Origin: a virus
Taxonomy: Duplodnaviria; Heunggongvirae; Uroviricota; Caudoviricetes
Length of the DNA: 27,448 bases
Reading direction: 5' to 3' (one strand)
Virus record (IMG/VR): IMGVR_UViG_2558860288_000005
Below the pieces are notes generated by a model. It did not search any database and had not been told where the DNA came from. It worked only from the letters and a program-made list of their open reading frames with translations. Position numbers and translations under genes: made by a program. This document shows positions 1 through 23,008 of the stretch, in pieces (position 1 is the stretch's first letter; every line of letters begins with the position of its first letter).

Positions 1-432
1 GTGGGTGAAGTCTTCAACAGCATCTGGGACTGCAAACAACTGATTGAAGAGCAACTCATCGATTATATCCGCACCACGCTGACCCATGCAGGCGGAATTA
101 CCGGTATGCGCCGGATTGCCGATTTTGCTTCGCTGTATCAGGTACGTACTGGCTCACACGGTCCTTCCGATTTGTCACCAGTCTGCATGGCTGCGGCGCT
201 GCACTTTGATCTGTGGGTCCCCAATTTCGGTGTCCAGGAATACATGGGTTATTCCGAACAAATGCTCGAAGTCTTCCCGCACAACTGGACTTTCGATAAC
301 GGCTATATGCATCCGGGAGACAAACCGGGTCTTGGTATCGAATTCGATGAAAAGCTGGCGGCGAAATATCCCTATGAACCTGCTTATCTACCAGTCGCAC
401 GTCTGGAAGATGGCACGCTGTGGAACTGGTAA
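1..432 (+). CDS. rspA: Starvation-sensing protein RspA (enolase-superfamily dehydratase), C-terminal part; 5' end lies outside the window
   Basis: ORF runs from the window edge; C-terminal sequence ...[38 protein letters not shown] recognised as RspA; immediately upstream of rspB as in K-12. Confidence 0.8.
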
Positions 433-443
433 GGAGTAAGATA

Positions 444-1463
444 ATGAAAAGCATATTAATTGAAAAACCGAATCAACTGGCGATTGTCGAACGTGAAATA
501 CCCACCCCGTCAGCGGGTGAAGTACGAGTAAAAGTGAAACTTGCCGGAATTTGTGGTTCAGATAGCCATATTTATCGTGGGCATAATCCTTTTGCGAAAT
601 ATCCGCGCGTCATTGGTCATGAATTCTTTGGCGTCATTGATGCAGTGGATGAAGGCGTGGAAAGCGCCAGAGTCGGTGAACGTGTTGCTGTCGATCCGGT
701 GGTCAGCTGTGGGCATTGCTATCCGTGCTCTATAGGTAAACCGAACGTTTGTACGACACTGGCTGTATTAGGTGTGCACGCTGACGGTGGTTTCAGTGAA
801 TATGCCGTGGTTCCGGCAAAAAATGCGTGGAAAATTCCTGAAGCAGTGGCCGATCAATATGCGGTAATGATCGAACCTTTTACCATTGCGGCTAACGTAA
901 CCGGACATGGTCAACCGACTGAAAATGATACCGTTCTGGTTTATGGTGCCGGTCCAATCGGCCTGACGATCGTTCAGGTATTAAAAGGCGTCTATAACGT
1001 TAAAAATGTGATTGTTGCCGATCGCATTGATGAACGACTGGAAAAAGCGAAAGAGAGCGGGGCTGACTGGGCGATTAATAACAGCCAGACACCGCTTGGC
1101 GAGATTTTCACTGAAAAAGGCATCAAGCCGACATTAATTATCGATGCGGCTTGTCATCCTTCTATCCTGAAAGAGGCCGTAACGCTGGCTTCTCCAGCGG
1201 CACGTATTGTATTGATGGGGTTCTCCAGTGAACCGTCTGAAGTGATTCAGCAAGGAATTACCGGAAAAGAACTCTCTATTTTCTCTTCACGCTTAAATGC
1301 AAATAAATTCCCGATCGTTATCGACTGGTTAAGTAAAGGGTTAATTAAACCAGAAAAATTAATTACCCATACGTTTGATTTCCAGCATGTTGCTGATGCC
1401 ATTAGTTTATTTGAACAGGATCAAAAACATTGCTGCAAAGTCTTACTCACTTTTTCTGAATAA
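444..1463 (+). CDS. rspB: Zn-dependent alcohol dehydrogenase family protein RspB
   Basis: 339-aa product from the ATG at 444 (MKSILIEKPNQ...) with AAGGAG Shine-Dalgarno at 431-436; GHEFFG and Cys-rich zinc motifs of the MDR family; the track ORF starts 8 codons earlier. Confidence 0.9.
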   Translation: MKSILIEKPNQLAIVEREIPTPSAGEVRVKVKLAGICGSDSHIYRGHNPFAKYPRVIGHEFFGVIDAVDEGVESARVGERVAVDPVVSCGHCYPCSIGKPNVCTTLAVLGVHADGGFSEYAVVPAKNAWKIPEAVADQYAVMIEPFTIAANVTGHGQPTENDTVLVYGAGPIGLTIVQVLKGVYNVKNVIVADRIDERLEKAKESGADWAINNSQTPLGEIFTEKGIKPTLIIDAACHPSILKEAVTLASPAARIVLMGFSSEPSEVIQQGITGKELSIFSSRLNANKFPIVIDWLSKGLIKPEKLITHTFDFQHVADAISLFEQDQKHCCKVLLTFSE

Positions 1464-1520
1464 TACCAATAACGGCGAGTAAGTAGTACGCATCTTACCT
1501 CTTTTTTAGAGATAACCATT

Positions 1521-1631
1521 ATGACAATAGAAAAACACGAAAGAAGCACTAAGGATTTGGTGAAAGCAGCAGTATCGGGATGGCTGGGCACTGCGCTTGA
1601 ATTTATGGATTTCAAGAGTCATGCGTGTTAA
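1521..1631 (+). pseudogene. ydfJ: 5' fragment of MFS transporter gene ydfJ, severed by prophage insertion (bacterial part ends at the att core near 1613; the ORF then reads into phage DNA to a stop)
   Basis: Short ORF MTIEKHERSTKDLVKAAVSGWLGTALEFMDFKSHAC; its LEFMDF end is duplicated as the MDFQ start of the 26165 ORF, which continues as the rest of the MFS transporter. Confidence 0.6.
1599..1613. other. attL core (prophage left junction) GAATTTATGGATTTC
   Basis: Same 14-15 bp sequence (one T fewer) recurs at 26160-26173; the flanks join to give an uninterrupted ydfJ reading frame. Confidence 0.55.
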
Positions 1632-1650
1632 CTATTTGATAAATATTAAA

Positions 1651-2946
1651 TTAATTTTTCATTGCTTCGTTATGGGGCATGGTTGGGGCAAACTCGCTTA
1701 ACTGTGTATTTAACAAAGCTACCTGTGCATTATTGTTTTCAGACATCCATTTTCCGTATACCTGAAATACCATTTGCGCATCTGCATGGCCCATCTGGTT
1801 TGCTATAAATGCCGGGTTAGCACCAGCTGTCAGCGACCAGCAGGCATAAGTATGTCTCGACTGATATGATTTTCGATGGCGGAGTCCGGCACGTTTTATC
1901 GCTGCGTCCCACATCTGCCTTATTGAGTCAACGGTAAAATGGTCACCATAATTTTTTACTCTCGCTGACACTTCAGGTTGAAAAACAAAGGTGCATTTTT
2001 GTTTTTCTGTTCTGCCATACTCTCTGAGGTGAACATCAATGATATGCTCTTTGCTCAGTCTCGTTAATGTCATCTGACTCCGGAGAGCGTCGATTGCTGG
2101 CTTAATAAGATGAATGACCCGATTGGTTCCCGCCTGTGTTTTTGGTACCGTGAAACGGTCTTTTGCTAAATTTCTCCTGATCATCATTGTTCCATTTTTC
2201 AGATCTATGTCCTCCCATCCAAGTGCACACAGCTCACCAGGGCGAACTCCAGTATAAACAGAAACACACCATAAATTTTTTGCTTGCTGATTTCTGCACG
2301 CATCGATAAGACGGATAAATTCTTCCCGCGAAAGAGGATCCGGAATGGTTCTTGATTCCTTTAATGGCGAGATCCCCTTAAACGGATTATCTGCCAGGTA
2401 ACCGTTATCAACACCAAACTGGAACACGGCGTTAAGATTTGTCATGTAATTATTTACAGTTACAGCCGATCTCCCTGGTTGTGTAACAATATAGTTACTT
2501 TTGGGGATCTGGTATCCAGTCAGTAACTCTTTACGAACCTCCAGTAATTTTTCTTTATTAATCGATGAGGCAAGATTTTTTTCACCGATTATGCTCAGGA
2601 TATTTTTGATGACGGCACGGTATGTGTTGAGTGATGTTTTGGCGACTTCAGTTTCTTTCAGTGCCAGAAATTTTTCAGCCAGTTCTTTTATGGTTAAATC
2701 TTGTCGGGCCTCACCAAATTTTTCCAGATTGCGTGAGGAGGGAAACTGTTTTGCATAGTCGAAAACACCAGTTTTTATTGCGTAACAAACAGAGGAGCGT
2801 AGTTCACCTGCAACGCGCCTGTTTTTTGCTGTGTCAGGAACCCCCAGATTTTCCCTGACTCTTACGTCTTTATAAACAAACCAGATACGTAATTTCCCTC
2901 CATGGTTTTCCACGCCTGTCGGATATTTCATTTCAACTTCTCTCAT
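1651..2946 (-). CDS. intQ: Phage tyrosine integrase (site-specific recombinase), apparently intact
   Basis: 431-aa ORF with C-terminal tyrosine-recombinase catalytic region (R...HxxR...Y; RHTYACWSLTAGANPAFIANQMGHADAQMVFQVYGKWM); stop 30 bp from the att core. A likelier start is the second ATG at 2931 (MKYPTG...), preceded by a purine-rich stretch. Confidence 0.88.
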   Translation of the reverse strand: MREVEMKYPTGVENHGGKLRIWFVYKDVRVRENLGVPDTAKNRRVAGELRSSVCYAIKTGVFDYAKQFPSSRNLEKFGEARQDLTIKELAEKFLALKETEVAKTSLNTYRAVIKNILSIIGEKNLASSINKEKLLEVRKELLTGYQIPKSNYIVTQPGRSAVTVNNYMTNLNAVFQFGVDNGYLADNPFKGISPLKESRTIPDPLSREEFIRLIDACRNQQAKNLWCVSVYTGVRPGELCALGWEDIDLKNGTMMIRRNLAKDRFTVPKTQAGTNRVIHLIKPAIDALRSQMTLTRLSKEHIIDVHLREYGRTEKQKCTFVFQPEVSARVKNYGDHFTVDSIRQMWDAAIKRAGLRHRKSYQSRHTYACWSLTAGANPAFIANQMGHADAQMVFQVYGKWMSENNNAQVALLNTQLSEFAPTMPHNEAMKN

Positions 2947-2965
2947 TAGTTAGTGTGGCTTTTAG

Positions 2966-3217
2966 TCAAGTAAGATGACGTCTTGGTCTCGCTGATGCCT
3001 GGCGCTCAATCCAGCGATCAATTTCTTCCAGGTTGTAAAAGCATGGACTGTTATCCCATGGCATACCGTCATGAGCGACATGCTTATATTCCCTTCCTTC
3101 CATAAACGATTTTTCCCGGGCCTTTTTTAACGTACCTTTTTTTATTCCTTTCAGCGCAATTAACTGCTCTTCGGATACCCATTTGCCGGGAGAGACAATC
3201 ATGATTACTTCGCTCAT
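2966..3217 (-). CDS. Excisionase-like small DNA-binding protein (Xis)
   Basis: 83-aa ORF immediately upstream of and co-oriented with int; small basic protein typical of lambdoid excisionases. Confidence 0.65.
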   Translation of the reverse strand: MSEVIMIVSPGKWVSEEQLIALKGIKKGTLKKAREKSFMEGREYKHVAHDGMPWDNSPCFYNLEEIDRWIERQASARPRRHLT

Positions 3218-3289
3218 CGATTTCTTTATCTCTTACATCAGACGAGCGCCGGTTGCAGAATACCAGTCACAACCGGCGACAGTTGAACA

Positions 3290-5761
3290 TTAAGAATCAG
3301 CCTGACTCGGGATCAGTTTTTGCCAGATAACTGAAACGTATTTTGCCTGGTAACGGGCGTCATCAAGTGCATTATGGCGCTCACCTTCGAATGGAATAGC
3401 CGTTCTGGCATCGAAGTCTATGGCTTTCCCCAGCTCAACGATTGTGCGTACATCGCGATCGTTGTAGTAACGCCACGGGCAGGGGATCCCCTGCCGTTCG
3501 TATGAACGGCGCAAAATCGTGTTGTCGAAGTTGGCTCCATTTCCCCAAACCTGAACAAAAAATTCACCGGAGTTTTCGTCGATAAATTCTCGCAATTGTA
3601 ACAGTGCATCATCTAACGGGATTTCATCGGTCATAATGGCAGATTGCGCTTCGCGTGATTGCTTAAGCCACCATTTAATGGTGTCCCGATCAATGACTCC
3701 GCCAGCAGTTTCCAGATCGATAGTCTTACTAAATTCCGGTCCCATATCTCCGGTTTGCGGATCGAAAAATATTGCACCTATTGAGATGATCGGGGCATCA
3801 GGATTTTTTCCCATGGTTTCAAGGTCGATCATTAGATGGTCACACGTCCTGCTGGTGGATGTGATTTCGTGATGACCGTTCACCTTAATTGGGTGATCTG
3901 CCGTCTCGCCAGTTTCATTATCGCTATTGTGATGCTGATTGCCGCCAGTGTTCTCCTTGTGTGGATGTTCAGCGCCTTCCATTTCCTCCGGATCATCTTC
4001 CTGAACTTCAACCTGATACTCTTCATCGAATGTTTCTTGGTATGTTGCGTCGCCCATCACCGCGCCACAATCAGGGCAGTTGCCGCCGCCGGTCTGACCG
4101 CAGGCGGTGCAGACTTTTTCCACTTCCTGTTGCGCTACTGGTTCAGGCTGTTTCGTTTCTGGCTCGTTTTGTAACGCATTTGGACTGTTTTGTTCCGCTT
4201 TTTGGTAGTTCCGTTCCGATTCATGCTGGTTCTGGTTCACAGAATCGCGGGTCTGGAGCCCCTTAACCCATTTCGGATCATTCGGGTCACTAATCCCTTC
4301 AACAAATTCACCACGTGATGCAGCAAGCAACTTATCGGCGTCAGGCTGGCTGATATTGGCTGCCTGCATAATTTTGTTTACTTCGTCAGCGGTAACTTTT
4401 ATCGGCTCTGGTTGTTCTGAATCTTCAGCGGTATCTACATTTTGCGGTAAGCCCGTGTATGTGCCATTTTTTCGGGCAAAATATTCTTCTTTTGTGATTT
4501 CAGTGGCGCCAGCAGCCAGTGCCTTATCCAGACCAGAGAGTTTGTTTGCGCGACCGTATTTTTCTCCGTCCTTATCTGCGAAGAGGAAATAGAACGGCCC
4601 CTCACGCTCTACAGATGGTTCAGCTTCCGGCGCGGTTTCATTTTTTGGGATATCAGATACCTCAGTTTCCACTGCATCAGTTTGTGTTTCTGATGACTGG
4701 AGAACATCAACAGTGCCCAGGTCTGTTTCTTCATTCTCAAACACGCCCTTTGTCGTCAGGTATTCGCAGATATATTTGTTCAGTGCTACGGGATCTTTGT
4801 GAATGTCGATCGGACGCTCACGGACAAGGCCAAAAATAGTTTGGCGGTCGTAGCGAAGGGCATCAGGCTGTTTGCGCATTGATGCCGAGATACGCTTCCA
4901 GTCTTCGCGGTCGTTGTCGATAACTTCTTTTTTTGCCCAGCGATGGATGCTGCCGTCAATGTTTCCGGCATCCACATCACTAGGCCAGAGAGCGTAGGCC
5001 AGTTCGTCATCCAGTGTTTTCCATGTCTGCTTGTATTCGCGATGAATGGCAGCAATGACCGGGCTGATTTTTCCTGTTGAATTTTCAGTGTACTGTTGAT
5101 TGGCTCTGGCGCGGGCGAGATCAACAACAGACGTGTATTTTCCGGTTTCCTTGCGTTCACCTTCGCGACGTTTTTTCCAGATGCGCATCTCTGCCTGAAT
5201 TTCGGGCCATTTAGCACCAGGAATACATTTATGCTTAACCCACCCAATGGCGTGCAACTTAAGCTCCGGATACATGGCGTTAACTTCTGGCATTTTCATC
5301 AACGCTTCAACGATATGTCCGTCGAATGTTGCCATGTCTTCCTGCAACAATTCCTGTGCGCTAATAACCATATCAACGGTGATGTTTTCACATGTGTCGA
5401 ACTTAACCATGACAGCGTTCTGTACTTCAGGGGCCAGCTTGTCAAAAGTGACGTTCATCGGATCGGATTCAGTCTCAACCGGGACAAAAGAAGCAGACTC
5501 CTCATCCCAGCGGTTTTCCTGCATATATTCAGCATCCCATGAATCGAGGGCAGGGCGGGGTATGCCAGGTTTATCCTCGCAGACAATAAATTTATAAGCG
5601 CAGTCCTGAGCAGCCGGATAATGTTCCAGGAATTGCCAGTGAAATTTTGCTCGAGCACGGCGTTCGTCGCCAGCTTCAATGGCTGTGGCTACAGCCACAG
5701 CGCCTTCTTCCCTTGTTGCCAGTTCGTCAGGAATAGCGGCGCAAATAAAGACTTTACTCAT
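3290..5761 (-). CDS. ydfE: Large prophage exonuclease (full-length YdfE-like; often annotated exodeoxyribonuclease VIII-like) with central CxxC-x7-CxxC zinc ribbon and C-terminal DnaQ-type DEDDh exonuclease motifs
   Basis: Track ORF 3290..5797; likely start is the ATG at 5761 (MSKVFICAAIPD...), preceded by GAGGT. C-terminal motifs MIDLETMG, WGNGANFD, HNALDDARY match Exo I/II/III of DEDDh nucleases; zinc ribbon CTACGQTGGGNCPDCG; long acidic low-complexity linker. Confidence 0.75.
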   Translation of the reverse strand: MSKVFICAAIPDELATREEGAVAVATAIEAGDERRARAKFHWQFLEHYPAAQDCAYKFIVCEDKPGIPRPALDSWDAEYMQENRWDEESASFVPVETESDPMNVTFDKLAPEVQNAVMVKFDTCENITVDMVISAQELLQEDMATFDGHIVEALMKMPEVNAMYPELKLHAIGWVKHKCIPGAKWPEIQAEMRIWKKRREGERKETGKYTSVVDLARARANQQYTENSTGKISPVIAAIHREYKQTWKTLDDELAYALWPSDVDAGNIDGSIHRWAKKEVIDNDREDWKRISASMRKQPDALRYDRQTIFGLVRERPIDIHKDPVALNKYICEYLTTKGVFENEETDLGTVDVLQSSETQTDAVETEVSDIPKNETAPEAEPSVEREGPFYFLFADKDGEKYGRANKLSGLDKALAAGATEITKEEYFARKNGTYTGLPQNVDTAEDSEQPEPIKVTADEVNKIMQAANISQPDADKLLAASRGEFVEGISDPNDPKWVKGLQTRDSVNQNQHESERNYQKAEQNSPNALQNEPETKQPEPVAQQEVEKVCTACGQTGGGNCPDCGAVMGDATYQETFDEEYQVEVQEDDPEEMEGAEHPHKENTGGNQHHNSDNETGETADHPIKVNGHHEITSTSRTCDHLMIDLETMGKNPDAPIISIGAIFFDPQTGDMGPEFSKTIDLETAGGVIDRDTIKWWLKQSREAQSAIMTDEIPLDDALLQLREFIDENSGEFFVQVWGNGANFDNTILRRSYERQGIPCPWRYYNDRDVRTIVELGKAIDFDARTAIPFEGERHNALDDARYQAKYVSVIWQKLIPSQADS

Positions 5762-5853
5762 TTGTTTTAACCTCATGACAGATTTAAGGATGAACAAATC
5801 CCTGCCATTGCTGGCATATAAGAATGAAACCGGATATTTATTACGGAACTGTT

Positions 5854-6045
5854 TTAAAGACCTGCCGGGATTTCGATATTATCCTGGTGAATAACTTTAT
5901 CGACCGGGTAACAGTTACCGGGAATTTTCTGTTCGGTTGCTGCAGTCATACACTCCTGCATTGTCCTGTGAACACTGACTGCAATATCAACTGGCTCTCC
6001 GGAAACAAGAAAAACTGTCAGAACAAGCACAAATGCTGAATTCAT
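5854..6045 (-). CDS. ydfD: Small lysis-associated protein YdfD (63 aa, N-terminal hydrophobic segment)
   Basis: MNSAFVLVLTVFLVSGEPVD...NIEIPAGL from the ATG at 6045; that ATG overlaps the dicB stop (ATGA), indicating translational coupling. Confidence 0.8.
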   Translation of the reverse strand: MNSAFVLVLTVFLVSGEPVDIAVSVHRTMQECMTAATEQKIPGNCYPVDKVIHQDNIEIPAGL

Positions 6046-6230
6046 TGTGCACATCCTTTTGGCATCAGACGTAAACGAGCCAGCATTGAAACAATGCATA
6101 TTTTATTTAATAGCTCCCGTTCTTGTTTTCTCTTGTTAATGGCATCTTCAGTAAATACTGGGTTACTGATAGTGACACCAATTTCAAAACAACCTTCAGA
6201 CGTATTAACGTTTGGTAATAACGTTTTCAT
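6042..6230 (-). CDS. dicB: Cell-division inhibitor DicB (62 aa)
   Basis: MKTLLPNVNTSEGCFEIGVTISNPVFTEDAINKRKQERELLNKICIVSMLARLRLMPKGCAQ; lies downstream of dicF and upstream of ydfD, the canonical operon order. Confidence 0.85.
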   Translation of the reverse strand: MKTLLPNVNTSEGCFEIGVTISNPVFTEDAINKRKQERELLNKICIVSMLARLRLMPKGCAQ

Positions 6231-6399
6231 TATCGCGTCCTCAACAATGAATTTTGTGATGCAGTGCCTGGTGCCTCCAGGTGACGTTAACCAGTTAACA
6301 ATTAACGCCGGATACAGAGAATCCACCCATAACACTGTTTTTGGTTTTAACTGTTCCGCGTGCGCTCAGCCGCATTCACCACATCACAAAATTCACTTT

Positions 6400-6457
6400 A
6401 AAAAGGGCGGCAGAGCAGTCACGGAGTAAAACTGATACCGCCAAACGTCACCAGAAA
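6400..6457 (-). ncRNA. dicF: DicF small RNA (about 53 nt plus terminator U-tract)
   Basis: Minus strand reads TTTCTGGTGACGTTTGGCGGTATCAGTTTTACTCCGTGACTGCTCTGCCGCCCTTTTT, matching DicF as I recall it, ending in a GC-rich stem plus U-run; sits between ydfC and dicB. Confidence 0.85.
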
Positions 6458-6797
6458 ATTGATAACAGAGGGCGTTGCAGCGGGGTTGTCACTTAAGCGT
6501 ATGGTCAACCTGACAACCCGGTGTCCTCAACGGGGAAGGAATAACCCCGCCATACTTACCGCCGCGCCATTTCGCGGGTTGCCACAACCGGAAGCGCACG
6601 GTCGACGAAAATTTAACGACAGGCTATCTATGAACCAGCTACCTCGCCGTGCGCTTTCGCGTTATGGTCTGACTTTTCAGGGAAATATCCTTTCAGTAAA
6701 CTGTCAGTTCCGGATGCGCACCCGTGTCCGGCGCACGCACTCCACCTCACCCGTGGAGAACTCCTTAATTACTAACCTTAGCTTTGTTGATTAGCTA

Positions 6798-7016
6798 CTA
6801 ACGCGGGTATGTAATCATTCTGGCAATGCTTAATGCCGCTGCTTTTTCCAGATTGGTGATATCCTGCTCCAGAGCGGACAGATTTTCAGCCTGCTTAGCC
6901 CTGGCTTCATTAGCCCATTTCAGATCCTGCGCTGCATTAATTTTCTGGCGCATCCACTCATAAAGTTCATCATCGGTATAGTCTGGCGCGATGATGACGG
7001 GTTCTCGTTTCTGCAT
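6798..7016 (-). CDS. ydfC: Qin-family small protein YdfC (72 aa)
   Basis: 72-aa ORF MQKREPVIIAPDYTDDELYEWMRQ... co-oriented in the dicB operon, between ydfB and dicF. Confidence 0.75.
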   Translation of the reverse strand: MQKREPVIIAPDYTDDELYEWMRQKINAAQDLKWANEARAKQAENLSALEQDITNLEKAAALSIARMITYPR

Positions 7017-7045
7017 ACTGATTCCTCGCGGTGCTGTTTCGCTTA

Positions 7046-7174
7046 TCAGCCGTTAGATTTTGCCGAACTGGAAAGCGCCTGTTTAAACTCACTGAAGCTG
7101 AGAGCTTCTTCGCCTTCGGCAAGGCCTTCGAAGTATTCTTCGTAAGCCTTTTCCATGATTGTGTCGAAATCCAT
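7046..7174 (-). CDS. ydfB: Small protein YdfB (42 aa)
   Basis: Below the track's length cut-off; my translation gives MDFDTIMEKAYEEYFEGLAEGEEALSFSEFKQALSSSAKSNG with AGGTGAG 7 nt upstream of the ATG at 7174; tightly packed against the ydfA stop. Confidence 0.6.
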   Translation of the reverse strand: MDFDTIMEKAYEEYFEGLAEGEEALSFSEFKQALSSSAKSNG

Positions 7175-7175
7175 A

Positions 7176-7331
7176 TCACTCACCTGAGTTTCTTTCCAGC
7201 CAGCGACGGGCACCATTTTCGGTTTTAAACGTTTTGCTTTTGGTATACGTCATTGCGGTGAACGTGCCGTCCTGGTTTGGAAACACGCCGTACACCAGAG
7301 ATTCGTTGTTGCCAAGATCGATAGTATCCAT
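7176..7331 (-). CDS. ydfA: Small protein YdfA (51 aa), first gene of the dicB operon
   Basis: Internal ATG at 7331 of the 7176..7409 track ORF gives MDTIDLGNNESLVYGVFPNQDGTFTAMTYTKSKTFKTENGARRWLERNSGE (51 aa). Confidence 0.7.
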   Translation of the reverse strand: MDTIDLGNNESLVYGVFPNQDGTFTAMTYTKSKTFKTENGARRWLERNSGE

Positions 7332-7411
7332 GCTGACCTCATTTCCCCTTAACGCTGGGGTAGCGGAACTGTTTGCTGAGAACACCGTGCGGTGTGTTGA
7401 TGCAAACAAGA

Positions 7412-7425
7412 TTAGCCATGACTAA
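7412..7425. promoter_or_regulatory. Candidate DicA operator at the dicB-operon promoter (TTAGCCATGACTAA; TTAG-N6-CTAA)
   Basis: Near-palindrome between dicA and ydfA; same architecture as two sites in the dicA-dicC intergenic region. Confidence 0.4.
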
Positions 7426-7497
7426 CATATCGGTCAAGTGATTTTGTATGCTATAGCTAACATAATTGATGTGGTAAAAGATAACTCATTGATGATG

Positions 7498-7905
7498 TTA
7501 TCTTTTATTTGTCCGCTGACGGGCTTTTAGTAATTCTTCAAAGAGTTTATTGAAGTTTTTTACTCGAGCTCGCATTTCGGCGAGCTGGGTATCCTGTTCT
7601 GATTCTGGCAGTGCATTAAACAGCTCAAGGAGCTCTAGTTCTTTGGGGGATAAGGCAACTGGCTTCTCAACAGGTGGTGTTGGTTGCTTGTCTTCATCGC
7701 CAAATAGAATCCATGTTGGTGAGCATTGCAATACTTTGCTGAGGGCAAAAAGGTTCTTCCCTGTAGGTTCACTATCACCCCGTTCCCATTGTGATACAGA
7801 CACATGGGAGATTTTCAGGGCTTTAGCAAGAGACCTTTGGGTGTGTTTGAGGTTTTTCCGACGATACCTGATGCGTTCGCCGATAGTTAAATTTTTTGTT
7901 TCCAT
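7498..7905 (-). CDS. dicA: HTH (XRE-family) repressor DicA, cI-like repressor of the dicB operon
   Basis: 135-aa ORF; N-terminal HTH QRSLAKALKISHVSVSQWERG; divergent from dicC. Confidence 0.9.
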   Translation of the reverse strand: METKNLTIGERIRYRRKNLKHTQRSLAKALKISHVSVSQWERGDSEPTGKNLFALSKVLQCSPTWILFGDEDKQPTPPVEKPVALSPKELELLELFNALPESEQDTQLAEMRARVKNFNKLFEELLKARQRTNKR

Positions 7906-7907
7906 AG

Positions 7908-7971
7908 TTAGCTAATGCTAAATCGTATTGACTATGTTTTTGTTAACATCTATCTTGTTAGTTATGACTAA
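7908..7971. promoter_or_regulatory. dicA/dicC divergent promoter-operator region with two TTAG-N6-CTAA palindromes (TTAGCTAATGCTAA at 7908-7921; TTAGTTATGACTAA at 7958-7971)
   Basis: Two near-perfect palindromes in the 83-bp gap between divergent repressor genes, analogous to OR sites of lambdoid immunity regions. Confidence 0.5.
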
Positions 7972-7988
7972 CAATAAAGGTGTTTTAA

Positions 7989-8237
7989 ATGCTTAAAACT
8001 GACGCTCTTTTGTATTTCGGTTCAAAAACAAAACTTGCACAAGCAGCAGGTATTCGTTTGGCTTCGCTTTATAGCTGGAAAGGGGATTTAGTTCCCGAAG
8101 GTCGCGCGATGCGTCTATTCGGCAGGTTAAACGTCTGGTGCAACGGTATAGAAATGAAGGGCCTTCTGGTCTGGTTTCCCACCGACGTGGAAAGCGTCCT
8201 AATAATTCCTTTTCTACTGAATTCAGAGCAACAGTAA
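7989..8237 (+). pseudogene. dicC: dicC (Cro-like regulator) whose 3' part appears replaced by transposase-derived sequence
   Basis: N-terminal ~43 aa (MLKTDALLYFGSKTKLAQAAGIRLASLYSWKGDLVPEGRAMRL) match DicC as I recall it; from about 8117 the same DNA encodes, in another frame, a transposase HTH segment, so the ORF tail is probably out-of-frame read-through. Confidence 0.5.
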
Positions 8238-11490: not shown

Positions 11491-11611
11491 ATTTTCAACG
11501 CGTTTGAAGTTCTGGACGGTGCCGGAATAGAATCAAAAATACTTAAGTAGCGCGCAGGGATAAGAGGGATGGTCCCTTAAAGGGGAGAGCTAATTATCCG
11601 GAAGGATTCTG

Positions 11612-12328
11612 ATGATGAACATCGAAGAACTGCGTAAAATTTTTTGTGAAGATGGCCTCTATGCTGTGTGCGTTGAAATGGCAGCGCAGGGGATGGTGCA
11701 GTCGAAAGCACCACTTGGGTTGGCCTTATTTCTGGCAAAAGTTGGTCTTCAGGACCCTCAGTTTGCGATTGAAGGCCTGCTAAATTACGCGATGGCACTG
11801 GATAACCCGACATTGAACAAATTGAGTGAAGAAATCCGGTTACAGATTATTCCTTACCTCGTGAGTTTTGCCTTTGCTGATTACTCCAGGTCTGCGGCAA
11901 GTAAGGCTCGCTGTGAGCATTGTTCAGGTACGGGATTTTATAATGTATTGCGCGAAGTGGTGAAACACTACAGACGCGGGGAATCTGTAATCAAGGAAGA
12001 ATGGGTGAAGGAACTATGTCAGCATTGCCATGGTAAGGGCGAAGCCAGCACAGCGTGCAGAGGGTGTAAGGGTAAAGGGATTGTTCTGGATGAAAAAAGA
12101 ACCCGGTTTCATGGCGTACCGGTATATAAGATTTGTGGGCGTTGTAATGGAAACCGGTTTAGTCGTTTACCGACCACGCTGGCACGACGTCATGTCCAGA
12201 AGCTGGTACCAGACCTGACCGATTATCAGTGGTATAAGGGGTATGCGGACGTCATTGGTAAACTGGTAACAAAGTGCTGGCAGGAAGAAGCATACGCGGA
12301 AGCGCAATTGAGGAAGGTGACGAGATAA
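11612..12328 (+). CDS. quuQ: Late-gene antitermination protein Q (Cys-rich zinc-binding Q family)
   Basis: 238-aa ORF with CxxC clusters (CEHCSGTG, CQHCHGKG, CRGCKGKG, CGRCNG); located upstream of the late/lysis region. Confidence 0.85.
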   Translation: MMNIEELRKIFCEDGLYAVCVEMAAQGMVQSKAPLGLALFLAKVGLQDPQFAIEGLLNYAMALDNPTLNKLSEEIRLQIIPYLVSFAFADYSRSAASKARCEHCSGTGFYNVLREVVKHYRRGESVIKEEWVKELCQHCHGKGEASTACRGCKGKGIVLDEKRTRFHGVPVYKICGRCNGNRFSRLPTTLARRHVQKLVPDLTDYQWYKGYADVIGKLVTKCWQEEAYAEAQLRKVTR

Positions 12329-12359
12329 ATGATTTTTGCTGAAGATGGCGACATGATGT

Positions 12360-12388
12360 TTGCATTTTTCAAAAAATATGGATAAAAT
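12360..12388 (+). promoter_or_regulatory. Candidate late promoter (PR'-like) downstream of Q: TTGCAT-17 bp-TAAAAT
   Basis: -35/-10 hexamers with 17-bp spacing, 30 bp after the Q stop and about 50 nt before an intrinsic terminator. Confidence 0.4.
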
Positions 12389-12435
12389 TTTTTCAACGAT
12401 GGGCTTTGTATACCCGACGTTAAGAAAAAGTAGAA

Positions 12436-12460
12436 AACCCGCTGATGAGCGGGTTTTGTG
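12436..12460 (+). terminator. Intrinsic terminator (tR'-like) downstream of the Q-side promoter
   Basis: ACCCGC-TGATGA-GCGGGT followed by TTTTGTGCTTT. Confidence 0.5.
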
Positions 12461-12749
12461 CTTTAAATGGGGCAATGGTAATGTTGAATCTCATCCCGGG
12501 ACTCATGTCTGTTAACTTATTATTTAGCTGGTGACTTGGTTATTTGCCTGATGTTTAAAATGTTTTCTTCCAGTACAATGTCCCTAAACACAATGAGTCT
12601 GCTTATTATATTATTAGCAGAGCTATTACGGCCAAAGTACAGCATAAGCTTTTAAAGCCAATCAACCAGTCATCAAGACAGACGGGGTTATTCATAAAAA
12701 CTCTCCATGTGTGATCCGATGGGGCCTGAAATTAAAGCTTTAATATAGC

Positions 12750-12962
12750 TCATGAAAGGTAAACATTGGCAGCTGAAGGGCCACGCAGACCATTTATCCG
12801 GCAAAATTCCACGCGTAATCCGGTGGTAATTTCTTCTGCATCGCGGAGATTGAGCGCTGAAACATGAAGCTGGACATCGATACGACCATCGGATGGGGTG
12901 ATAAGACCCTTGCCGCTTTTGCCGTCAAAGGTTTTGACAATTCCTGTCATTTTACGGGACAA
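12750..12962 (-). CDS. cspF: Cold-shock protein family (CspA-like) paralog
   Basis: 70-aa [29 protein letters not shown]... with the cold-shock-domain fold signature. Confidence 0.9.
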
Positions 12963-13262
12963 AAAAATTCCTTAATACTGATAACTTGGCGCACTATACA
13001 CACGTTCCTGAAGAAAGCTATAGTTTTTTGATGGGGTTGAAGATGGCTGGATGTCTAAAATAAACATTGCTTCATATGTTCAACTATGCGTTAATGATTG
13101 CGTCGGTTTGAAGAACAGACGATATACGAAGTAGTTTACTAAAGCAGTTCTCATTTCAGGTGTTATTCACTTATTCCTTCTTTGAGTCTCTCCAATTAAG
13201 TACGAAGTCGTTTCTGTTATGCAAACCATTTATGCCGAAAGGCTCAAGTTAAGGAATGTAGA

Positions 13263-13478
13263 ATGTCAAATAAAATGACTGGTTTAGTAAAATGGTTTAA
13301 CGCTGATAAAGGTTTCGGCTTTATTTCTCCTGTTGATGGTAGTAAAGATGTGTTTGTGCATTTTTCTGCGATTCAGAATGATAATTATCGAACCTTATTT
13401 GAAGGTCAAAAGGTTACCTTCTCTATAGAGAGTGGTGCTAAAGGTCCTGCAGCAGCAAATGTCATCATTACTGATTAA
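13263..13478 (+). CDS. cspB: Cold-shock protein CspB
   Basis: 71-aa [41 protein letters not shown]... (RNP1/RNP2 motifs); long 5' leader typical of cold-shock genes. Confidence 0.9.
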
Positions 13479-13760
13479 AATTCATCGCTCGTCCGTATAC
13501 GATAACGAAGAAGGCTGATGCCTGAGTAGAGATACGGACAGAGTAGTGAATATTGGATCTCTTTAATAAAAAGTAAGGAGGTCCAATACATGAAACAATG
13601 GCTAGCATATTTGGCAAAATCTTAATCAGGAAAAGTATGCTAACCATTGTGGTGAAGTGCAGGTTTGCTGCATGAATAGTTTTACAGCAGAAGCTAACTG
13701 CTGGCATGGCAAAACAAAGTGCGTAAGTGGATGACTCCCACAAAAAGCACCACAATCTCA

Positions 13761-13784
13761 AACCCGCTCAGGCGGGTTTTTTAT
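13761..13784 (+). terminator. Intrinsic terminator downstream of cspB
   Basis: AACCCGC-TCAG-GCGGG followed by TTTTTT. Confidence 0.55.
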
Positions 13785-13841
13785 TATCTGCTTTAAATAT
13801 ATTATTAAAATATAAAAAATACTTGTTACTAATAAAATCAA

Positions 13842-14012
13842 TCAGGCTACAGCTTTAAGATTTGTCTGGAATACTTTGTTGCAATGAGGGCAGATCAAAA
13901 GGGCACCTTTTTGTACTCTTGAAAAACTGTGTTCTGACTCTTGGGTGCAGTTTGGGCAGGAACATTTAACGAGATAATTACGGCGTGATTTTGAGTTTTT
14001 ACGTTCTGACAT
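13842..14012 (-). CDS. Small zinc-ribbon protein (56 aa; CxCPxC...CPHC), possibly YnfU-like
   Basis: Internal ATG at 14012 of the 73-aa track ORF, preceded by AGGAAAAG; gives MSERKNSKSRRNYLVKCSCPNCTQESEHSFSRVQKGALLICPHCNKVFQTNLKAVA. Confidence 0.5.
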   Translation of the reverse strand: MSERKNSKSRRNYLVKCSCPNCTQESEHSFSRVQKGALLICPHCNKVFQTNLKAVA

Positions 14013-14231
14013 AGGCTTTTCCTGTATAAATGGCCGTATACAGTACACTAAATATGAAAACATTTCTCGTATTATTATTTTATATATGACTTTCTTTCAA
14101 AATAATTACCCACATTTTTAATGTGTATGTTTTTTTAGCGCCGTTGAGAACAACGTGTGCTGTCAAAACTACCCCGTAGACTCCGATCTTTTCAAACATA
14201 TTGCACCATCCGTGTACATCGGGGTGAGGAT

Positions 14232-14447
14232 ATGAAATCAATGGATAAGTTAACAACAGGTGTTGCCTATGGCACATCGGCGGGTAATGCTGGTTTCTGG
14301 GCATTGCAGTTACTCGATAAAGTAACTCCGTCACAGTGGGCTGCAATCGGTGTGCTGGGTAGCCTGGTTTTTGGCCTGCTGACGTATCTGACAAATCTTT
14401 ATTTCAAGATTAAAGAAGACAGGCGTAAGGCTGCGAGAGGAGAGTAA
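14232..14447 (+). CDS. essQ: Class II holin (phage 21 S21-type pinholin) with MKSM dual-start motif
   Basis: [71 protein letters not shown] (71 aa), two transmembrane segments, strongly similar to S21 as I recall it. Confidence 0.85.
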
Positions 14448-14451
14448 TCCA

Positions 14452-14759
14452 ATGACTCAAGACTATGAACTGGTTGTGAAAGGAGTCCGTAATTTTGAGA
14501 ATAAAGTTACGGTAACTGTAGCCTTACAGGACAAAGAACGCTTTGACGGTGAAATTTTTGACCTGGATGTCGCCATGGACCGTGTTGAAGGAGCTGCGCT
14601 GGAGTTTTATGAGGCAGCAGCCAGAAGGAGCGTCCGGCAAGTCTTCCTGGAAGTAGCAGAAAAATTGTCAGAAAAAGTTGAGTCTTATCTGCAGCATCAG
14701 TACTCCTTTAAGATTGAAAATCCTGCCAATAAGCACGAGCGTCCTCATCATAAATATCT

Positions 14760-14763
<4 letters not shown>
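14452..14763 (+). CDS. ydfR: YdfR-like protein of unknown function, inserted between holin and endolysin
   Basis: 103-aa ORF tightly packed between essQ and the lysozyme gene (stop overlaps the lysozyme start). Confidence 0.75.
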
Positions 14764-15787
<1,024 letters not shown>

Positions 15788-16149
15788 GGTAATATTAAAT
15801 CGGAACATTTACATCGCGGAATGTAAAATTTAAATAAAAAGGACTCTTCCATGAGCCAAAATTCCTGAAATCTTAAGGGTAAGATAAAAGGTCTTAATCA
15901 GAATGACACGTTTTATTAATAAATAAAGCTATTCTTTCATTGCTGTGTTTTTCTTTACAAAAGTAATCCTTGCTATGGGTGGTTAATCATGCGTTAATGG
16001 TGTTCTGGTTTGTTACAAATTTATCTGAAGCAGTCATTGTTATAATTTTATTATTTGTACCTCTTGAGATTTCCTTGTTGGTTTTTCTCTCTGATATTTT
16101 TTTTCGGACCATTCTGCCCAAGGGCTAATTTCTTCAAAAGGTAATAATT

Positions 16150-16362
16150 ATGTCTAACAAAATGACTGGTTTAGTGAAATGGTTTAACCCTGAAAAAGGT
16201 TTTGGTTTCATCACGCCGAAAGATGGCAGCAAAGATGTGTTTGTCCATTTCTCAGCAATTCAGAGCAACGATTTCAAAACATTAACTGAGAATCAGGAAG
16301 TTGAATTTGGTATTGAGAACGGACCTAAAGGTCCTGCCGCTGTTCATGTAGTGGCGCTTTGA
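16150..16362 (+). CDS. cspI: Cold-shock protein CspI
   Basis: 70-aa [48 protein letters not shown]... Confidence 0.9.
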
Positions 16363-16372
16363 GGTAGACAAT

Positions 16373-16561
16373 ATTACAAACCATATTCACTTTAGATGCC
16401 CGTGTTGTCATGGTTCCCAGTATAGAACATCATCTTTTGATGTTTCTGACATGAATCCTTTCGGGGCAAAATGTATCTTTTGTAAATCAATGATGATTAC
16501 ATTTGATAATATTTCACAATACTTAAATGCCAGCCGTCTGTCGTTGGATTTAAAAAAGTGA
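16373..16561 (+). CDS. Putative small zinc-ribbon ORF (CPCC...CIFC) downstream of cspI, YnfN-like; start codon uncertain
   Basis: Open frame 16352-16561 encodes ...HIHFRCPCCHGSQYRTSSFDVSDMNPFGAKCIFCKSMMITFDNISQYLNASRLSLDLKK; only in-frame ATG is at 16451, but GAGGT at 16360-16364 sits 8 nt before an ATT codon at 16373; intrinsic terminator right after the stop. Confidence 0.3.
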   Translation: MTNHIHFRCPCCHGSQYRTSSFDVSDMNPFGAKCIFCKSMMITFDNISQYLNASRLSLDLKK

Positions 16562-16568
16562 AAATGAA

Positions 16569-16589
16569 GGCTCCTTCGGGAGCTTTTTT
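16569..16589 (+). terminator. Intrinsic terminator after the cspI/zinc-ribbon unit
   Basis: GGCTCC-TTCG-GGAGC followed by TTTTTT. Confidence 0.55.
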
Positions 16590-16633
16590 GCTTGGTGTCT
16601 ATTCGATGGATACTCACATACTACGGTAACATC

Positions 16634-16864
16634 ATGAAAAAAATCATAGTTTTTTTTAACTCTGAACCAGCAGTGGTAGTGCCAGCGATGACTGGAGTTA
16701 ACACCATCATGCGTGAATATCCAAATGGCGAAAAAACACACCTTACTGTAATGGCCGCAGGGTTTCCATCTCTGACCGGAGATCATAAAGTCATTTATGT
16801 AGCCGCGGATCGACATGTTACTTCAGAAGAAATTCTGGAAGCAGCAATAAGGCTCTTGAGTTGA
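16634..16864 (+). CDS. Hypothetical small protein (76 aa)
   Basis: Internal ATG at 16634 of the 16592 track ORF (MKKIIVFFNSEPAVVVPAMTG...); no domain recognised. Confidence 0.45.
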   Translation: MKKIIVFFNSEPAVVVPAMTGVNTIMREYPNGEKTHLTVMAAGFPSLTGDHKVIYVAADRHVTSEEILEAAIRLLS

Positions 16865-17035
16865 TTTGATGCTATTGCATTGATAATTCAGGAAAATTCT
16901 CTTTGTCTGTTTGTGTAAAATTTAGACTATCGTATGTTGATTATTGCGATGTTTCATCTTATCTTTTACACGTTTGCACCATATAATCGACTTACTGTGT
17001 AACTGGAAAGTCATAACAGACTAAAAGAGGAAATG

Positions 17036-17209
17036 ATGAATATTGAAAACTTAAAAACAAAAGCAGAAGCAGATATTTCTGAATATATAACAAAAAAAAT
17101 TATTGAACTTAAGAAAAAGACCGGGAAAGAAGTTACCAGTATTCAGTTTACCGCACGGGAAAAAATGACGGGTCTTGAAAGCTATGATGTCAAGATTAAT
17201 TTAATCTGA
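17036..17209 (+). CDS. gnsB: GnsA/GnsB-family small protein (57 aa)
   Basis: Below the track cut-off; my translation gives MNIENLKTKAEADISEYITKKIIELKKKTGKEVTSIQFTAREKMTGLESYDVKINLI with AGAGG Shine-Dalgarno at 17026-17030. Confidence 0.8.
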   Translation: MNIENLKTKAEADISEYITKKIIELKKKTGKEVTSIQFTAREKMTGLESYDVKINLI

Positions 17210-17360
17210 TGTATTCAATAATAAAATTTATCCATAAACCTCGTTTTTACGGGGTTTTGTTATATTTGAATGGTTCCGAATATCTAAATCACAATTGTTG
17301 ATGGTTTTTATTAAACCAATGCAGTCCGGCTCAGGAGTGAGAGAAGCCGGACGTTATGGT

Positions 17361-17771
17361 TTAGCGTGGTAAGATCTGTGTAGTTTTCTGGATGCTTTCA
17401 GTAAATAGTAATGAATTATCAAAGGTATAGTAATATCTTTTTTGTTCGTGGATATTTGTAACCCACCGAAAAACTCCTGCTTTAGCAAGGTTTCTTCTGT
17501 ATTCCTGAAATGTGATCTCTCTGGATTTCAGCTTATTAGAGGTCGTTTCTATAAGATGCCTATCCTTTGAAAATTTGACAGACACAATGTTTTTTAGGCC
17601 CTTTAATAACACTGTATTATCATTTTTTAATACAATATGAACATTCTCTGTGGCTAAATAGTAAATGTAATGTGAGACATTGTGACGTTTTAGCTCAGAA
17701 TAAAACCATTGATAGTTTAAATCGTTTCGAACTTTATCAAATATTTGTTTAAAAATGACTACCTGATCCAT
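17361..17771 (-). CDS. ydfO: DUF1398-family protein YdfO (136 aa)
   Basis: Internal start [45 protein letters not shown]... within the 141-aa track ORF. Confidence 0.8.
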
Positions 17772-17828
17772 AGATAAACCTTCCATGTGATATGAGGGGG
17801 CGTAGTCTGCACGATTATCTAAATTGCT

Positions 17829-18062
17829 TCAATCTGGTCTGACCTGTTTTCTGAGCAATTCAGTAATGTCACTCTTTTCTTTGTTTGCTTCAGAAGAAAC
17901 TCTTTTTTCTGAGCACAGTCTCCGGCGGCAGGCTTCAATGACCCAGGCTGAGAAATTCCCGGACCCTTTTTGCTCAAGAGCGATGTTAATTTGTTCAATC
18001 ATTTGGTTAGGAAAGCGGATGTTGCGGGTTGTTGTTCTGCGGGTTCTGTTCTTCGTTGACAT
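17829..18062 (-). CDS. Small ribbon-helix-helix-like DNA-binding protein (YlcI/DUF3950-like) upstream of ydfO
   Basis: 77-aa ORF; basic N-terminus (MSTKNRTRRTTTRNIRFP) then an RHH-like segment NQMIEQINIALEQKGSGNFSAWVIEACRRRL; co-oriented with ydfO, 57 bp upstream of it. Confidence 0.5.
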   Translation of the reverse strand: MSTKNRTRRTTTRNIRFPNQMIEQINIALEQKGSGNFSAWVIEACRRRLCSEKRVSSEANKEKSDITELLRKQVRPD

Positions 18063-18229
18063 GAGGTTGCCCCGTATTCAGTGTCGCTGATTTGTATTGT
18101 CTGAAGTTGTTTTTACGTTAAGTTGATGCAGATCAATTAATATGATACCTGCGTCATAATTGATTATTTGACGTGGTTTGATGGCGTAGATGCACGTTGT
18201 GACATGCAGATGATAATTATTATCATTTT

Positions 18230-18440
18230 GCGGGTCCTTTCCGGCGATCCGACAGGTTACGGGGCGGCGACCTCGCGGGTTTTCGCTATTTATGAAAATT
18301 TTCCGGTTTAAGGCATTTCCGTTCTTCTTCGTCGTAACTTAATGTTTTTATTTAAAATACCCCCTGAAAAGAAAGGAAACGACAGGTGCTGAAAACGAGC
18401 TTTTGGGCCTCTGTCGTTTCCTTTCTCTGTTTTTGGCCGT
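18230..18440 (+). other. Lambda-type cos region: cosN 12-nt cohesive-end sequence GGGCGGCGACCT at 18262-18273, with cosQ/cosB flanks
   Basis: ...CGACAGGTTACG|GGGCGGCGACCT|CGCGGGTTTTCGCTATTTATGAAAATTTTCCGG... matches the lambda right-end/left-end junction as I recall it, immediately upstream of the Nu1 gene. Confidence 0.8.
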
Positions 18441-18450
18441 GGAATGAACA

Positions 18451-20455: not shown

Positions 20456-20763
20456 TGCCGTTGTAACCGGTCATCCCCGAGTACGGCTGCAGCGCCCGCG
20501 TCCGGCTGACCAGCGTGCCGGACACCGGCAGCACGGCGATGCCGTTCATGACCTGATAACTGCGGGCCTGTCGTGGTCCGTCATCATCACCGGATAATGC
20601 CAGCGTCGCGAGTGCCTCCTGGGCAGTCAGGCTGTCGCCGGACACCGCATCCGTCAGGCGGCTGATCCCAAGCTGGCCTGCAAGCGCACAAAAGAAAACC
20701 CGCGCATAGGCGGGTTCAAGCATCAGCGGCTCATTAAAAGCCATGCTGGCAATATGCGGGAGA

Positions 20764-20783
<20 letters not shown>
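20454..20783 (-). pseudogene. C: Head protease/scaffold gpC, 5' fragment (about 110 codons), inverted and truncated
   Basis: Minus-strand ...VTAELRNLPHIASMAFNEPLMLEPAYARVFFCALAGQLGIS...GMTGYNGI matches the lambda C N-terminus; start overlaps the B stop by about 20 nt as in lambda; similarity ends at the junction near 20454. Confidence 0.8.

Positions 20784-23008
<2,225 letters not shown>

Follow-up and report, generated by a model that had tools for sequence, protein, structure and literature searches.

The window, i.e., the entire 27,448-base stretch of DNA analyzed here, contains between positions 5854 and 7971 what is, judging from its sequence, the well-studied and already known DicA-repressed dicBF cell-division-inhibitor operon of the Escherichia coli Qin prophage. 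The genes ydfA, ydfB, ydfC, dicF, dicB and ydfD, along with the repressor gene dicA, all lie on the minus strand and are co-oriented (Table 1). A sequence-only reading of this DNA, in which the strand was not mentioned, had reported all the operon genes as present and co-oriented, and the open reading frames, the RefSeq annotation, and the Pfam and Rfam matches confirm each of them at the reported position. Downstream of ydfD, the exonuclease, xis and int genes follow in the same orientation, separated by gaps of 34 to 92 bp. The element is the immunity-proximal "left arm" of an E. coli Qin-type lambdoid prophage that is integrated beside rspB. Work on the operon, on its repressor, on the processing of DicF, and on what DicB and YdfD do dates back to the 1980s.

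Table 1. Features of the dicBF operon, its control region and the flanking genes (positions in the window)
Feature	Position	Strand	Description and evidence
integrase (int), intact	1651-2931	-	Pfam Phage_integrase and Arm-DNA-bind_2; RefSeq site-specific integrase on identical DNA
excisionase (xis)	2966-3217	-	Pfam DUF1233, putative excisionase, 1.6e-31; RefSeq annotation
3'-5' exonuclease, 823 aa	3290-5761	-	full-length version of K-12 ydfE; Rv2179c-like exonuclease domain (Pfam, 2.4e-67)
weak 5-bp hairpin, then GGGATTTGTT	5803-5816	-	only terminator-like feature between ydfD and exonuclease; pattern scan
ydfD	5854-6045	-	63-aa lysis protein (IspG inhibitor); Pfam DUF1482, 91.1 bits; WP_001083297.1, as in K-12
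dicB	6042-6230	-	62-aa division inhibitor; Pfam DicB PF05358, 1.9e-40; WP_000854559.1, as in K-12
dicF sRNA and U-tract	6400-6457	-	53-nt RNA 6457-6405, U-tract 6404-6400
long stem, ydfC-dicF spacer	6582-6667	-	includes published RNase III cut position (~6589/6590); folds
ydfC	6798-7016	-	ORF; RefSeq WP_001171942.1
ydfB	7046-7174	-	ORF; RefSeq WP_000344964.1
ydfA, first operon gene	7176-7331	-	Pfam DUF1391, 1.7e-28; RefSeq annotation
dicBp	7409-7437	-	-35 TTGACC 7437-7432, 17-nt spacer, -10 TAATCT 7414-7409
palindrome TTAGCCATGACTAA	7412-7425	.	in dicBp spacer, overlaps -10; pattern search
imperfect palindrome TATGCTATAGCTAA	7447-7460	.	35 bp upstream of 7412 site; 2 mismatches to GTTAG-N6-CTAAC
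dicA, repressor, 135 aa	7498-7905	-	Pfam HTH_3 and Phage_CI_repr; WP_000448564.1, as in K-12
palindrome TTAGCTAATGCTAA	7908-7921	.	adjoins dicA start codon; pattern search
dicC promoter-like site	7928-7956	+	TTGACT, 17 nt, TATCTT; pattern scan
Oc, 20-bp inverted repeat	7955-7974	.	core TTAGTTATGACTAA at 7958-7971; exact match to cloned Oc
dicC remnant	7989-8117	+	43 of 76 codons, then unrelated sequence; alignments with MG1655 and NCTC9008
rem remnant, ~23 codons	11612-11681	+	in-frame fusion to ydfT, ORF 11612-12328; BLAST against NCTC9008

Alignment of the segment 5700-8117 with E. coli K-12 MG1655 reveals two base differences in 2.4 kb. One of these, at 7738 within dicA, is silent, and the other, at 6649, keeps the stem pair (C-G vs U-G), so that both leave the gene products unaltered; dicF (identical in sequence to that of MG1655) and dicB, for which the earlier reading had proposed a check for inactivating changes, carry none. 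The gene set, gene order, promoters, palindromes and RefSeq protein accessions are all shared with K-12 Qin, many complete E. coli genomes match the stretch 5854-7971 at 100% identity, and the dicBF module is present at 95% identity or higher in thousands of E. coli genomes. Given this near base-for-base identity with K-12, the operon is ordinary, and its functions in the present strain would be those known from K-12. The differences from K-12 lie on both sides of the operon: the exonuclease, xis and int genes are intact here, whereas in MG1655 ydfE is cut by IS2 and the integrase is represented by a pseudogene fragment, intQ; conversely, dicC (cut after codon 43) and rem (cut after ~23 codons) are truncated here and intact in K-12. 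A record labelled DH5alpha was considered as a stand-in for K-12 and rejected because, unlike in MG1655, the exonuclease and integrase genes in that record are intact; hence the use of MG1655 in these comparisons.

The DicB protein matches PF05358 along its entire length (136.8 bits over residues 1-62 of 62). The TGA of dicB overlaps the ATG of ydfD as ATGA at 6045-6042, as had been read before; this arrangement suggests translational coupling of the gene for the division inhibitor with that for YdfD, the lysis protein that inhibits IspG (PMC8835842). The ydfD gene also has an AAGGA Shine-Dalgarno sequence of its own, 8 nt upstream. An Rfam search places DicF (RF00039) on the minus strand, at 6405-6456, over the full length of the model (1-52) with a score of 76.7 bits, compared to the gathering score of 48, and the 3' end of this RNA forms a hairpin (-15.9 kcal/mol) followed by five U at 6404-6400, an apparent Rho-independent terminator. 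The description of dicF as a 53-nt RNA with its own terminator agrees with these features. The long stem in the ydfC-dicF spacer, which carries the RNase III cut site reported in K-12 as 813/814 together with a 190-nt DicF species (PMC10448788), is conserved relative to K-12; the dicF-dicB spacer, by comparison with shuffled sequence, folds no better than expected.

The operon is known to be repressed by DicA and to have a lambda-PL-like layout (PMC10448788), and both parts of this identification, which the sequence-only reading had made, hold for the present sequence, which is essentially that of K-12. From the promoter elements of dicBp, a transcription start is inferred at about 7402, in agreement with the published 813/814 cut and with the 190-nt species ending at the U-tract. 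Counted from the same start, a transcript of 1,608 nt would end near 5795 (arithmetic on the figures of PMC10448788), and one of the published length of 1,146 nt would miss the dicF 3' end, so that the latter figure was left unused. Repression of dicBp by DicA is 22-fold, and operator sequences are described in both intergenic regions (PMC10448788). The pattern TTAGNNNNNNCTAA (TTAG-N6-CTAA) has exactly three matches in the 27,448-base window, at 7412, 7908 and 7958, compared to the expectation of 0.26, and none of 100 shuffles reaches three; these palindromes, which had been noticed previously, are the only perfect ones in the window, and all belong to the immunity region. At dicBp, TTAGTCATGGCTAA occupies the spacer and the -10 element within TTGACC-17-TAATCT, and the palindrome at 7412 is a probable candidate operator for both DicA and DicC; the published entry for a DicA site at dicB is of low evidence and has no assigned location (PMC7567609). 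The palindrome at 7958 is the core of Oc, TTGTTAGTCATAACTAACAA, which binds DicA in vivo in K-12 (PMC3441716) and is unchanged at 7955-7974 here; among the three palindromes, published evidence of DicA binding is confined to this one. The palindrome at 7908 fits "Oa" by position. DicA was reported to bind neither of the cloned sites Oa and Om in vivo (for Oa, as data not shown), and putative -10 and -35 elements of dicC are given in the same study (PMC3441716).

The imperfect palindrome at 7447-7460, which was missed by the earlier reading, is a candidate second operator of dicBp, although insignificant alone. Searches of the window with relaxed patterns detect no enrichment: with one mismatch allowed, 5 palindromes were found compared to 9 expected, and when up to 3 mismatches were permitted in the 16-bp form the numbers are 71 and 77, i.e., at the chance level. 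The case for this site accordingly comes from its position and from the analogy with the phage mEp460_ev081, where the PL region contains a pair of that phage's own palindromes 36 bp apart, and not from statistics.

The inducible lambdoid phages PhiR42_1, Tritos and mEp460_ev081 share the gene order int-xis-exo-ydfD-dicB-dicF-ydfCBA-repressor-cro. For PhiR42_1, identity to the window is 99.9% across the entire region; for Tritos, it is 98.3% within 5854-7369. In the latter phage, the repressor is only 29% identical to DicA, and in mEp460_ev081, the repressor is 57% identical and the HTH has diverged; TTAG-N6-CTAA is absent from both, and both have an intact cro and other operator palindromes, e.g., TGAGAAAACTCA, which in mEp460_ev081 takes the corresponding places at PL and PR. 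Thus, in this comparison of phages, repressor type and palindrome covary, and the palindromes at the PR-like and PL-like promoters are specific for the immunity type. The control region of lambda is organized likewise, with the repressor gene located between divergently controlled promoters, palindromic operators for CI and Cro overlapping the promoters, and a leftward operon that ends in exo, xis and int, an analogy that has been drawn in the literature (PMC10448788). Unlike in lambda, however, the early leftward genes here encode division inhibitors and an sRNA, no N gene was recognized, and the Cro analogue is truncated. The repressors differ as well: in Pfam, DicA matches HTH families only, with no S24 peptidase domain, and its 135-aa translation contains no AG dipeptide, consistent with the published account in which DicA lacks the RecA-cleavable Ala-Gly and repression is relieved by an antirepressor (PMC10448788).

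Taken together, the sequence identity and the published K-12 results establish the following mechanism, which would hold in the present strain as well. The non-cleavable HTH repressor DicA acts on dicCp via the Oc palindrome, to which binding has been shown in K-12, and on the PL-like dicBp presumably via the spacer palindrome. Once repression is lifted, dicBp directs expression of ydfA-ydfB-ydfC, the structured untranslated spacer, dicF, dicB and ydfD. The long spacer stem is then cut by RNase III and the product trimmed by RNase E to the 53-nt DicF, whose 3' end is at the hairpin and U-tract described above, with dicB and the overlapping ydfD being carried on transcripts that read past this point. 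Translation of ftsZ is blocked by DicF, MinC is directed against FtsZ by DicB, and lysis results from YdfD unless division is blocked.

The sequence-only reading had described the operon as complete. This is the case for the operon itself and not for its control circuit, in which dicC is cut at 8117 and what is left of rem forms a fusion with ydfT. The Pfam P22_Cro match of the dicC remnant covers only positions 2-41 of 60, and in the annotation of strain N61 the gene is a pseudogene, as is the rem-ydfT fusion, whose junction is common only to that strain. Hence the intact divergent Cro-like gene that a lambdoid bistable switch requires is absent, and the second inducer, Rem, which is the DicA antirepressor (PMC10448788), is truncated. 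We infer that both known routes to full derepression have been lost, which would leave the operon at basal, DicA-limited expression. Stationary-phase production of DicF and spontaneous switching at ~1% are independent of Rem (PMC10448788), so that the operon would be "locked off" at most partially, and the 43-residue DicC remnant, which keeps the HTH, could retain some DNA binding. Overall, the observations are best explained, with very high probability, by a Qin-type left arm in which the operon and dicA are unchanged, dicC and rem are truncated, and expression would be basal and limited by DicA.

Within this framework, several alternative or additional readings have to be weighed. The proposal that all three perfect palindromes are DicA operators acting like the lambda OL/OR sites is compatible with the absence of further perfect matches from the window, with their location at the two immunity-region promoters, with the operator sequences described in both intergenic regions (PMC10448788), and with the covariation of palindrome and repressor across phages. 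However, binding has been demonstrated for Oc alone, and the report that DicA binds neither Oa nor Om in vivo (PMC3441716) makes this proposal doubtful in its full form: it stands for 7958, is plausible for 7412, and conflicts with the available result for 7908. The latter site may instead require cooperative binding that would be invisible to a single-site assay. Furthermore, the motif derived from ChIP-seq of DicC is this same palindrome, TT(A/C/T)G...C(G/A/T)AA, and DicC signal flanks dicA on either side (PMC11430063), so that the 7908 site might serve mainly DicC, in the same manner as OR3 serves Cro. A single long PL-type transcript, running from dicBp through dicF, dicB and ydfD into the exonuclease, xis and int genes, is somewhat easier to entertain although still short of an even chance. 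The co-oriented layout, with its short gaps, is real and recurs in inducible phages, for which expression of exo, xis and int is a requirement. The statement that there is no obvious terminator is fair for the ydfD-exonuclease gap, given that only the weak 5-bp hairpin with a poor T-tract is found there and that the fold of 5762-5856 is no better than those of shuffles (z = -0.28); what that statement overlooked is the apparent terminator of DicF, internal to the operon. In addition, the window yielded no recognizable N-like antiterminator and no nut/put element, and in Northern analysis of K-12 the longest RNA was the species assigned to ydfABC-dicFB-ydfD, seen alongside one assigned to ydfABC-dicF (PMC10448788), which leaves read-through into exo-xis-int a candidate; as the downstream genes are disrupted in K-12, this negative result may not transfer to the present element. 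With its left arm intact through the integrase gene, the window is a better place than K-12 for testing whether dicBp transcripts reach exo-xis-int.

The truncations themselves can be read in two further ways. It appears improbable that this is a prophage remnant in decay, functionally silent and with an operon that no longer matters. The pseudogene state of dicC and rem, the deletion of ~4.1 kb including replication genes, and the fragmented and rearranged packaging genes all point in this direction, but the operon, dicA, promoters and operators are unchanged relative to K-12, where the operon is expressed in stationary phase with demonstrated effects, and the module is conserved across E. 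coli as described above. Rather unlikely as well, but less so, is a reading in which the DicA switch became one-way in the lineage comprising the window and N61, with both known derepression routes, DicC and Rem, lost by deletion and dicA, the operators and dicBF unchanged. If true, the lineage would offer a natural case in which a host has frozen a toxic prophage module in its repressed form yet retained low-level DicF and DicB-mediated phage exclusion. Returning to the basal, DicA-limited operon favored here, its discovery value is small, given that the operon has long been studied and that the sequence is that of K-12; as a natural variant it is of modest value, and the loss of both known inducers provides a ready-made background for asking how dicBF depends on DicC and Rem.

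The closest relative of the element is the Qin prophage carried by E. coli N61 from bovine mastitis (NZ_AP028880.1), which is identical over window positions 1-8117 and again, in one piece at 100% identity, over 11600-27448, with the same rem-ydfT fusion and with the break in dicC at the same base. There, the dicC stump runs into a ydaT-like gene and genes of the replication region are still present, whereas in the window a further 3.76 kb is missing and the stump is joined to an ISNCY transposase pseudogene via a TCTAT repeat. The dicC-ISNCY junction has no contiguous match in 5,426 complete E. coli genomes, and its exact form is also absent from a one-genome-per-species set, a result that says little because that set includes few E. 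coli. Thus, two different deletions begin at the same dicC base, which could reflect either a hotspot for deletion or selection that acted repeatedly against DicC. Overproduction of DicC is growth-inhibitory.

The dicBF operon of this Qin-type prophage is confirmed: ydfA-ydfB-ydfC-dicF-dicB-ydfD are present and co-oriented, as had been read from the sequence, and the minus strand carries all seven features of region 5854–7971. Pfam matches identify DicB, YdfD (DUF1482), YdfA (DUF1391) and the HTH domain of DicA, and other strains with identical DNA have exactly these gene names in RefSeq. The region is matched at 100% identity by many complete E. coli genomes, and at least 80% of it is present in 808 of 5,426. 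Alignment of window 5700–8117 with the K-12 reference MG1655 reveals two base differences, one at 7738, in the third position of a dicA codon, which is silent and leaves the protein accession the same, and one at 6649 in the ydfC-dicF spacer, the sole non-coding difference in the operon. Because there are no others, dicF and dicB carry no inactivating change. The operon is already known, and its interpretation in the sequence-only reading largely retells known Qin biology, with three overstatements, namely the number of DicA operators, the run-on into the exonuclease, xis and int genes, and completeness.

Features of the operon and of the adjoining left arm
Feature	Coordinates	Strand	Remark
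dicA	7498-7905	minus	
ydfA	7176-7331	minus	
ydfB	7046-7174	minus	
ydfC	6798-7016	minus	
dicF	6405-6457	minus	Rfam
dicB	6042-6230	minus	Pfam
ydfD	5854-6045	minus	Pfam DUF1482
exonuclease	3290-5761	minus	co-oriented with operon; intact
excisionase	2966-3217	minus	co-oriented with operon; intact
integrase	1651-2931	minus	co-oriented with operon; intact

The three palindromes of the form TTAG-N6-CTAA (7412, 7908 and 7958) exist and are exactly three, compared with 0.26 expected, a number reached in none of 100 shuffled sequences. The one at 7958 is the core of the site Oc: Yun et al. cloned a 20-bp sequence that coincides exactly with 7955–7974. Oc binds DicA in vivo in K-12, and binding is lost on one base change (PMC3441716). 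The palindrome at 7412 lies in the spacer of the minus-strand promoter dicBp (TTGACC-17-TAATCT, graded good) and overlaps the -10 element, a position at which a repressor would block RNA polymerase. In K-12, DicA represses dicBp 22-fold (PMC10448788); according to one paper, the DicA site for dicB is of low evidence and unknown location (PMC7567609). The third palindrome, at 7908, abuts the dicA start codon and its position fits Oa, but Oa, like Om, was reported not to bind DicA (data not shown; PMC3441716), so that "three DicA operators" overstates the evidence. A preprint describes a ChIP-seq motif for DicC, the Cro analogue, of the same palindrome kind, TT(A/C/T)G...C(G/A/T)AA, with binding on both flanks of dicA (PMC11430063). 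Given this motif and the unequal DicA evidence across the sites, the palindromes are most aptly described as operators that DicA and DicC share and that differ in affinity. No Shine-Dalgarno sequence can be recognised for the dicA start codon (7900–7910), and no consensus dicA promoter is described in the literature (PMC3441716, PMC7567609); by analogy with lambda cI transcribed from PRM, the dicA mRNA could possibly be leaderless.

The left arm, with its gene order retained, also occurs in inducible lambdoid phages, among them two with other repressors. The repressor of mEp460_ev081 is 57% identical to DicA with a diverged HTH; a search of this phage for TTAG-N6-CTAA finds none, and another palindrome, TGAGAAAACTCA, occupies the equivalent places, namely between the -35 and -10 elements of the leftward promoter, 36 bp upstream of that copy, and in front of cro. 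The Tritos repressor is 29% identical to DicA, and the motif is likewise absent from Tritos. Thus, palindrome and repressor type change together, as expected of operators. The pair 36 bp apart in mEp460_ev081 singles out an imperfect palindrome, TATGCTATAGCTAA, at 7447–7460, 35 bp upstream of the 7412 site; on statistics alone it is indistinguishable from chance, and by this analogy it is a candidate second dicBp operator. The operon body (window 5854–7369; 3501–5016 in comparison record L005) is 96–98% identical in Tritos and vB_EcoS-689R5, which are inducible and have unrelated immunity repressors. Judged from these alignments, it behaves as a cassette that occurs under several immunities and would be exchanged between types, since homology to Tritos ends at 7369, roughly 33 nt past the inferred start of dicBp transcription.

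The DicF match scores 76.7 bits against an Rfam gathering score of 48. As had been claimed, the RNA is embedded in the operon with an apparent terminator of its own; that the 3' hairpin (-15.9 kcal/mol) followed by five U is Rho-independent is our own reading. The untranslated spacer of about 340 nt between ydfC and dicF is predicted to fold into a long stem, and the fold of the whole spacer is equalled by none of 100 shuffles. A published RNase III cut at 813/814 of the K-12 operon transcript (PMC10448788) maps, if +1 is at ~7402, to 6589/6590, among the predicted pairs of this stem, and a 190-nt species counted from there ends exactly at the DicF U-tract. The pair at 6649 in the same stem is C-G in the window and U-G in MG1655, with the predicted structure unaltered.

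The dicB stop and ydfD start do share the ATGA at 6045–6042, and ydfD has an AAGGA Shine-Dalgarno sequence of its own 8 nt upstream. Partial overlap of these genes has been reported, with YdfD-induced lysis offset by DicB (PMC8835842); from the overlap we infer translational coupling. Continuation into the exonuclease, xis and int genes had also been proposed. The co-oriented PL-like layout, stated in the literature (PMC10448788), stands, and the exonuclease side, destroyed by IS2 in K-12, is intact here. The sole terminator-like feature past ydfD is a 5-bp hairpin with a poor T-tract (5816–5803), and the ydfD-exonuclease gap folds no better than shuffled sequence. However, the DicF hairpin and U-tract form a barrier inside the operon, left out of the earlier summary, and K-12 Northern blots revealed species assigned to ydfABC-dicF and ydfABC-dicFB-ydfD (1,608 nt), none longer (PMC10448788). 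Counted from +1, a 1,608-nt transcript would by our calculation stop near 5795, at the tail of the 5816–5803 hairpin. A single long transcript from dicBp through exo-xis-int is therefore unproven. In the comparison record NZ_CP026085.1, labelled DH5alpha, the exonuclease, excisionase, integrase and replication-region genes are intact, unlike in MG1655, and its K-12-derivative label looks doubtful.

The operon was called complete, and all its genes are indeed unaltered, but the control circuit is broken outside region 5854–7971, with dicC and the antirepressor gene rem truncated. In dicC (window 7989–8237), the K-12 sequence extends to 8117, codon 43 of 76, and is followed by foreign sequence from within an ISNCY transposase pseudogene, joined via TCTAT microhomology (junction 8114–8118). 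About 4.1 kb is missing there relative to E. coli NCTC9008, including a ydaT-like gene and replication-region genes. This junction is absent from the 5,426 complete E. coli genomes; in the nearest relative, strain N61, dicC breaks off at the identical base, where a ydaT-like gene is joined to it instead. The rem gene is reduced to about 23 codons, which continue in frame into the antiterminator gene ydfT/quuQ (ORF 11612–12328), with an 8-bp overlap at the junction (11674–11681) and about 1.7 kb deleted, including ydfU; only the window and N61 have this junction. Intact regions are the norm (dicC in 841 genomes, rem in 2,259). Rem relieves DicA repression; spontaneous switching depends on DicC, as does strong induction in response to urea and high temperature (PMC10448788). 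Expression of the operon in this strain would then probably be held at a basal, DicA-limited level.

Elsewhere in the prophage, cspA-thermoregulator Rfam matches (13102–13520 and 16004–16389; 161 and 113 bits) lie over the cold-shock genes cspB and cspI, and a full-length IS009 match (220.9 bits) lies at 23908–24106 inside the tail-fibre assembly gene tfaQ. The annotation of identical N61 DNA shows the packaging and head genes at 18971–22996 as fragments that face both ways: the plus strand has part of the terminase large-subunit gene, and the minus strand then has a peptidase fragment, the portal and head-tail joining genes and a terminase fragment. This arrangement points to an inversion or rearrangement of the region.
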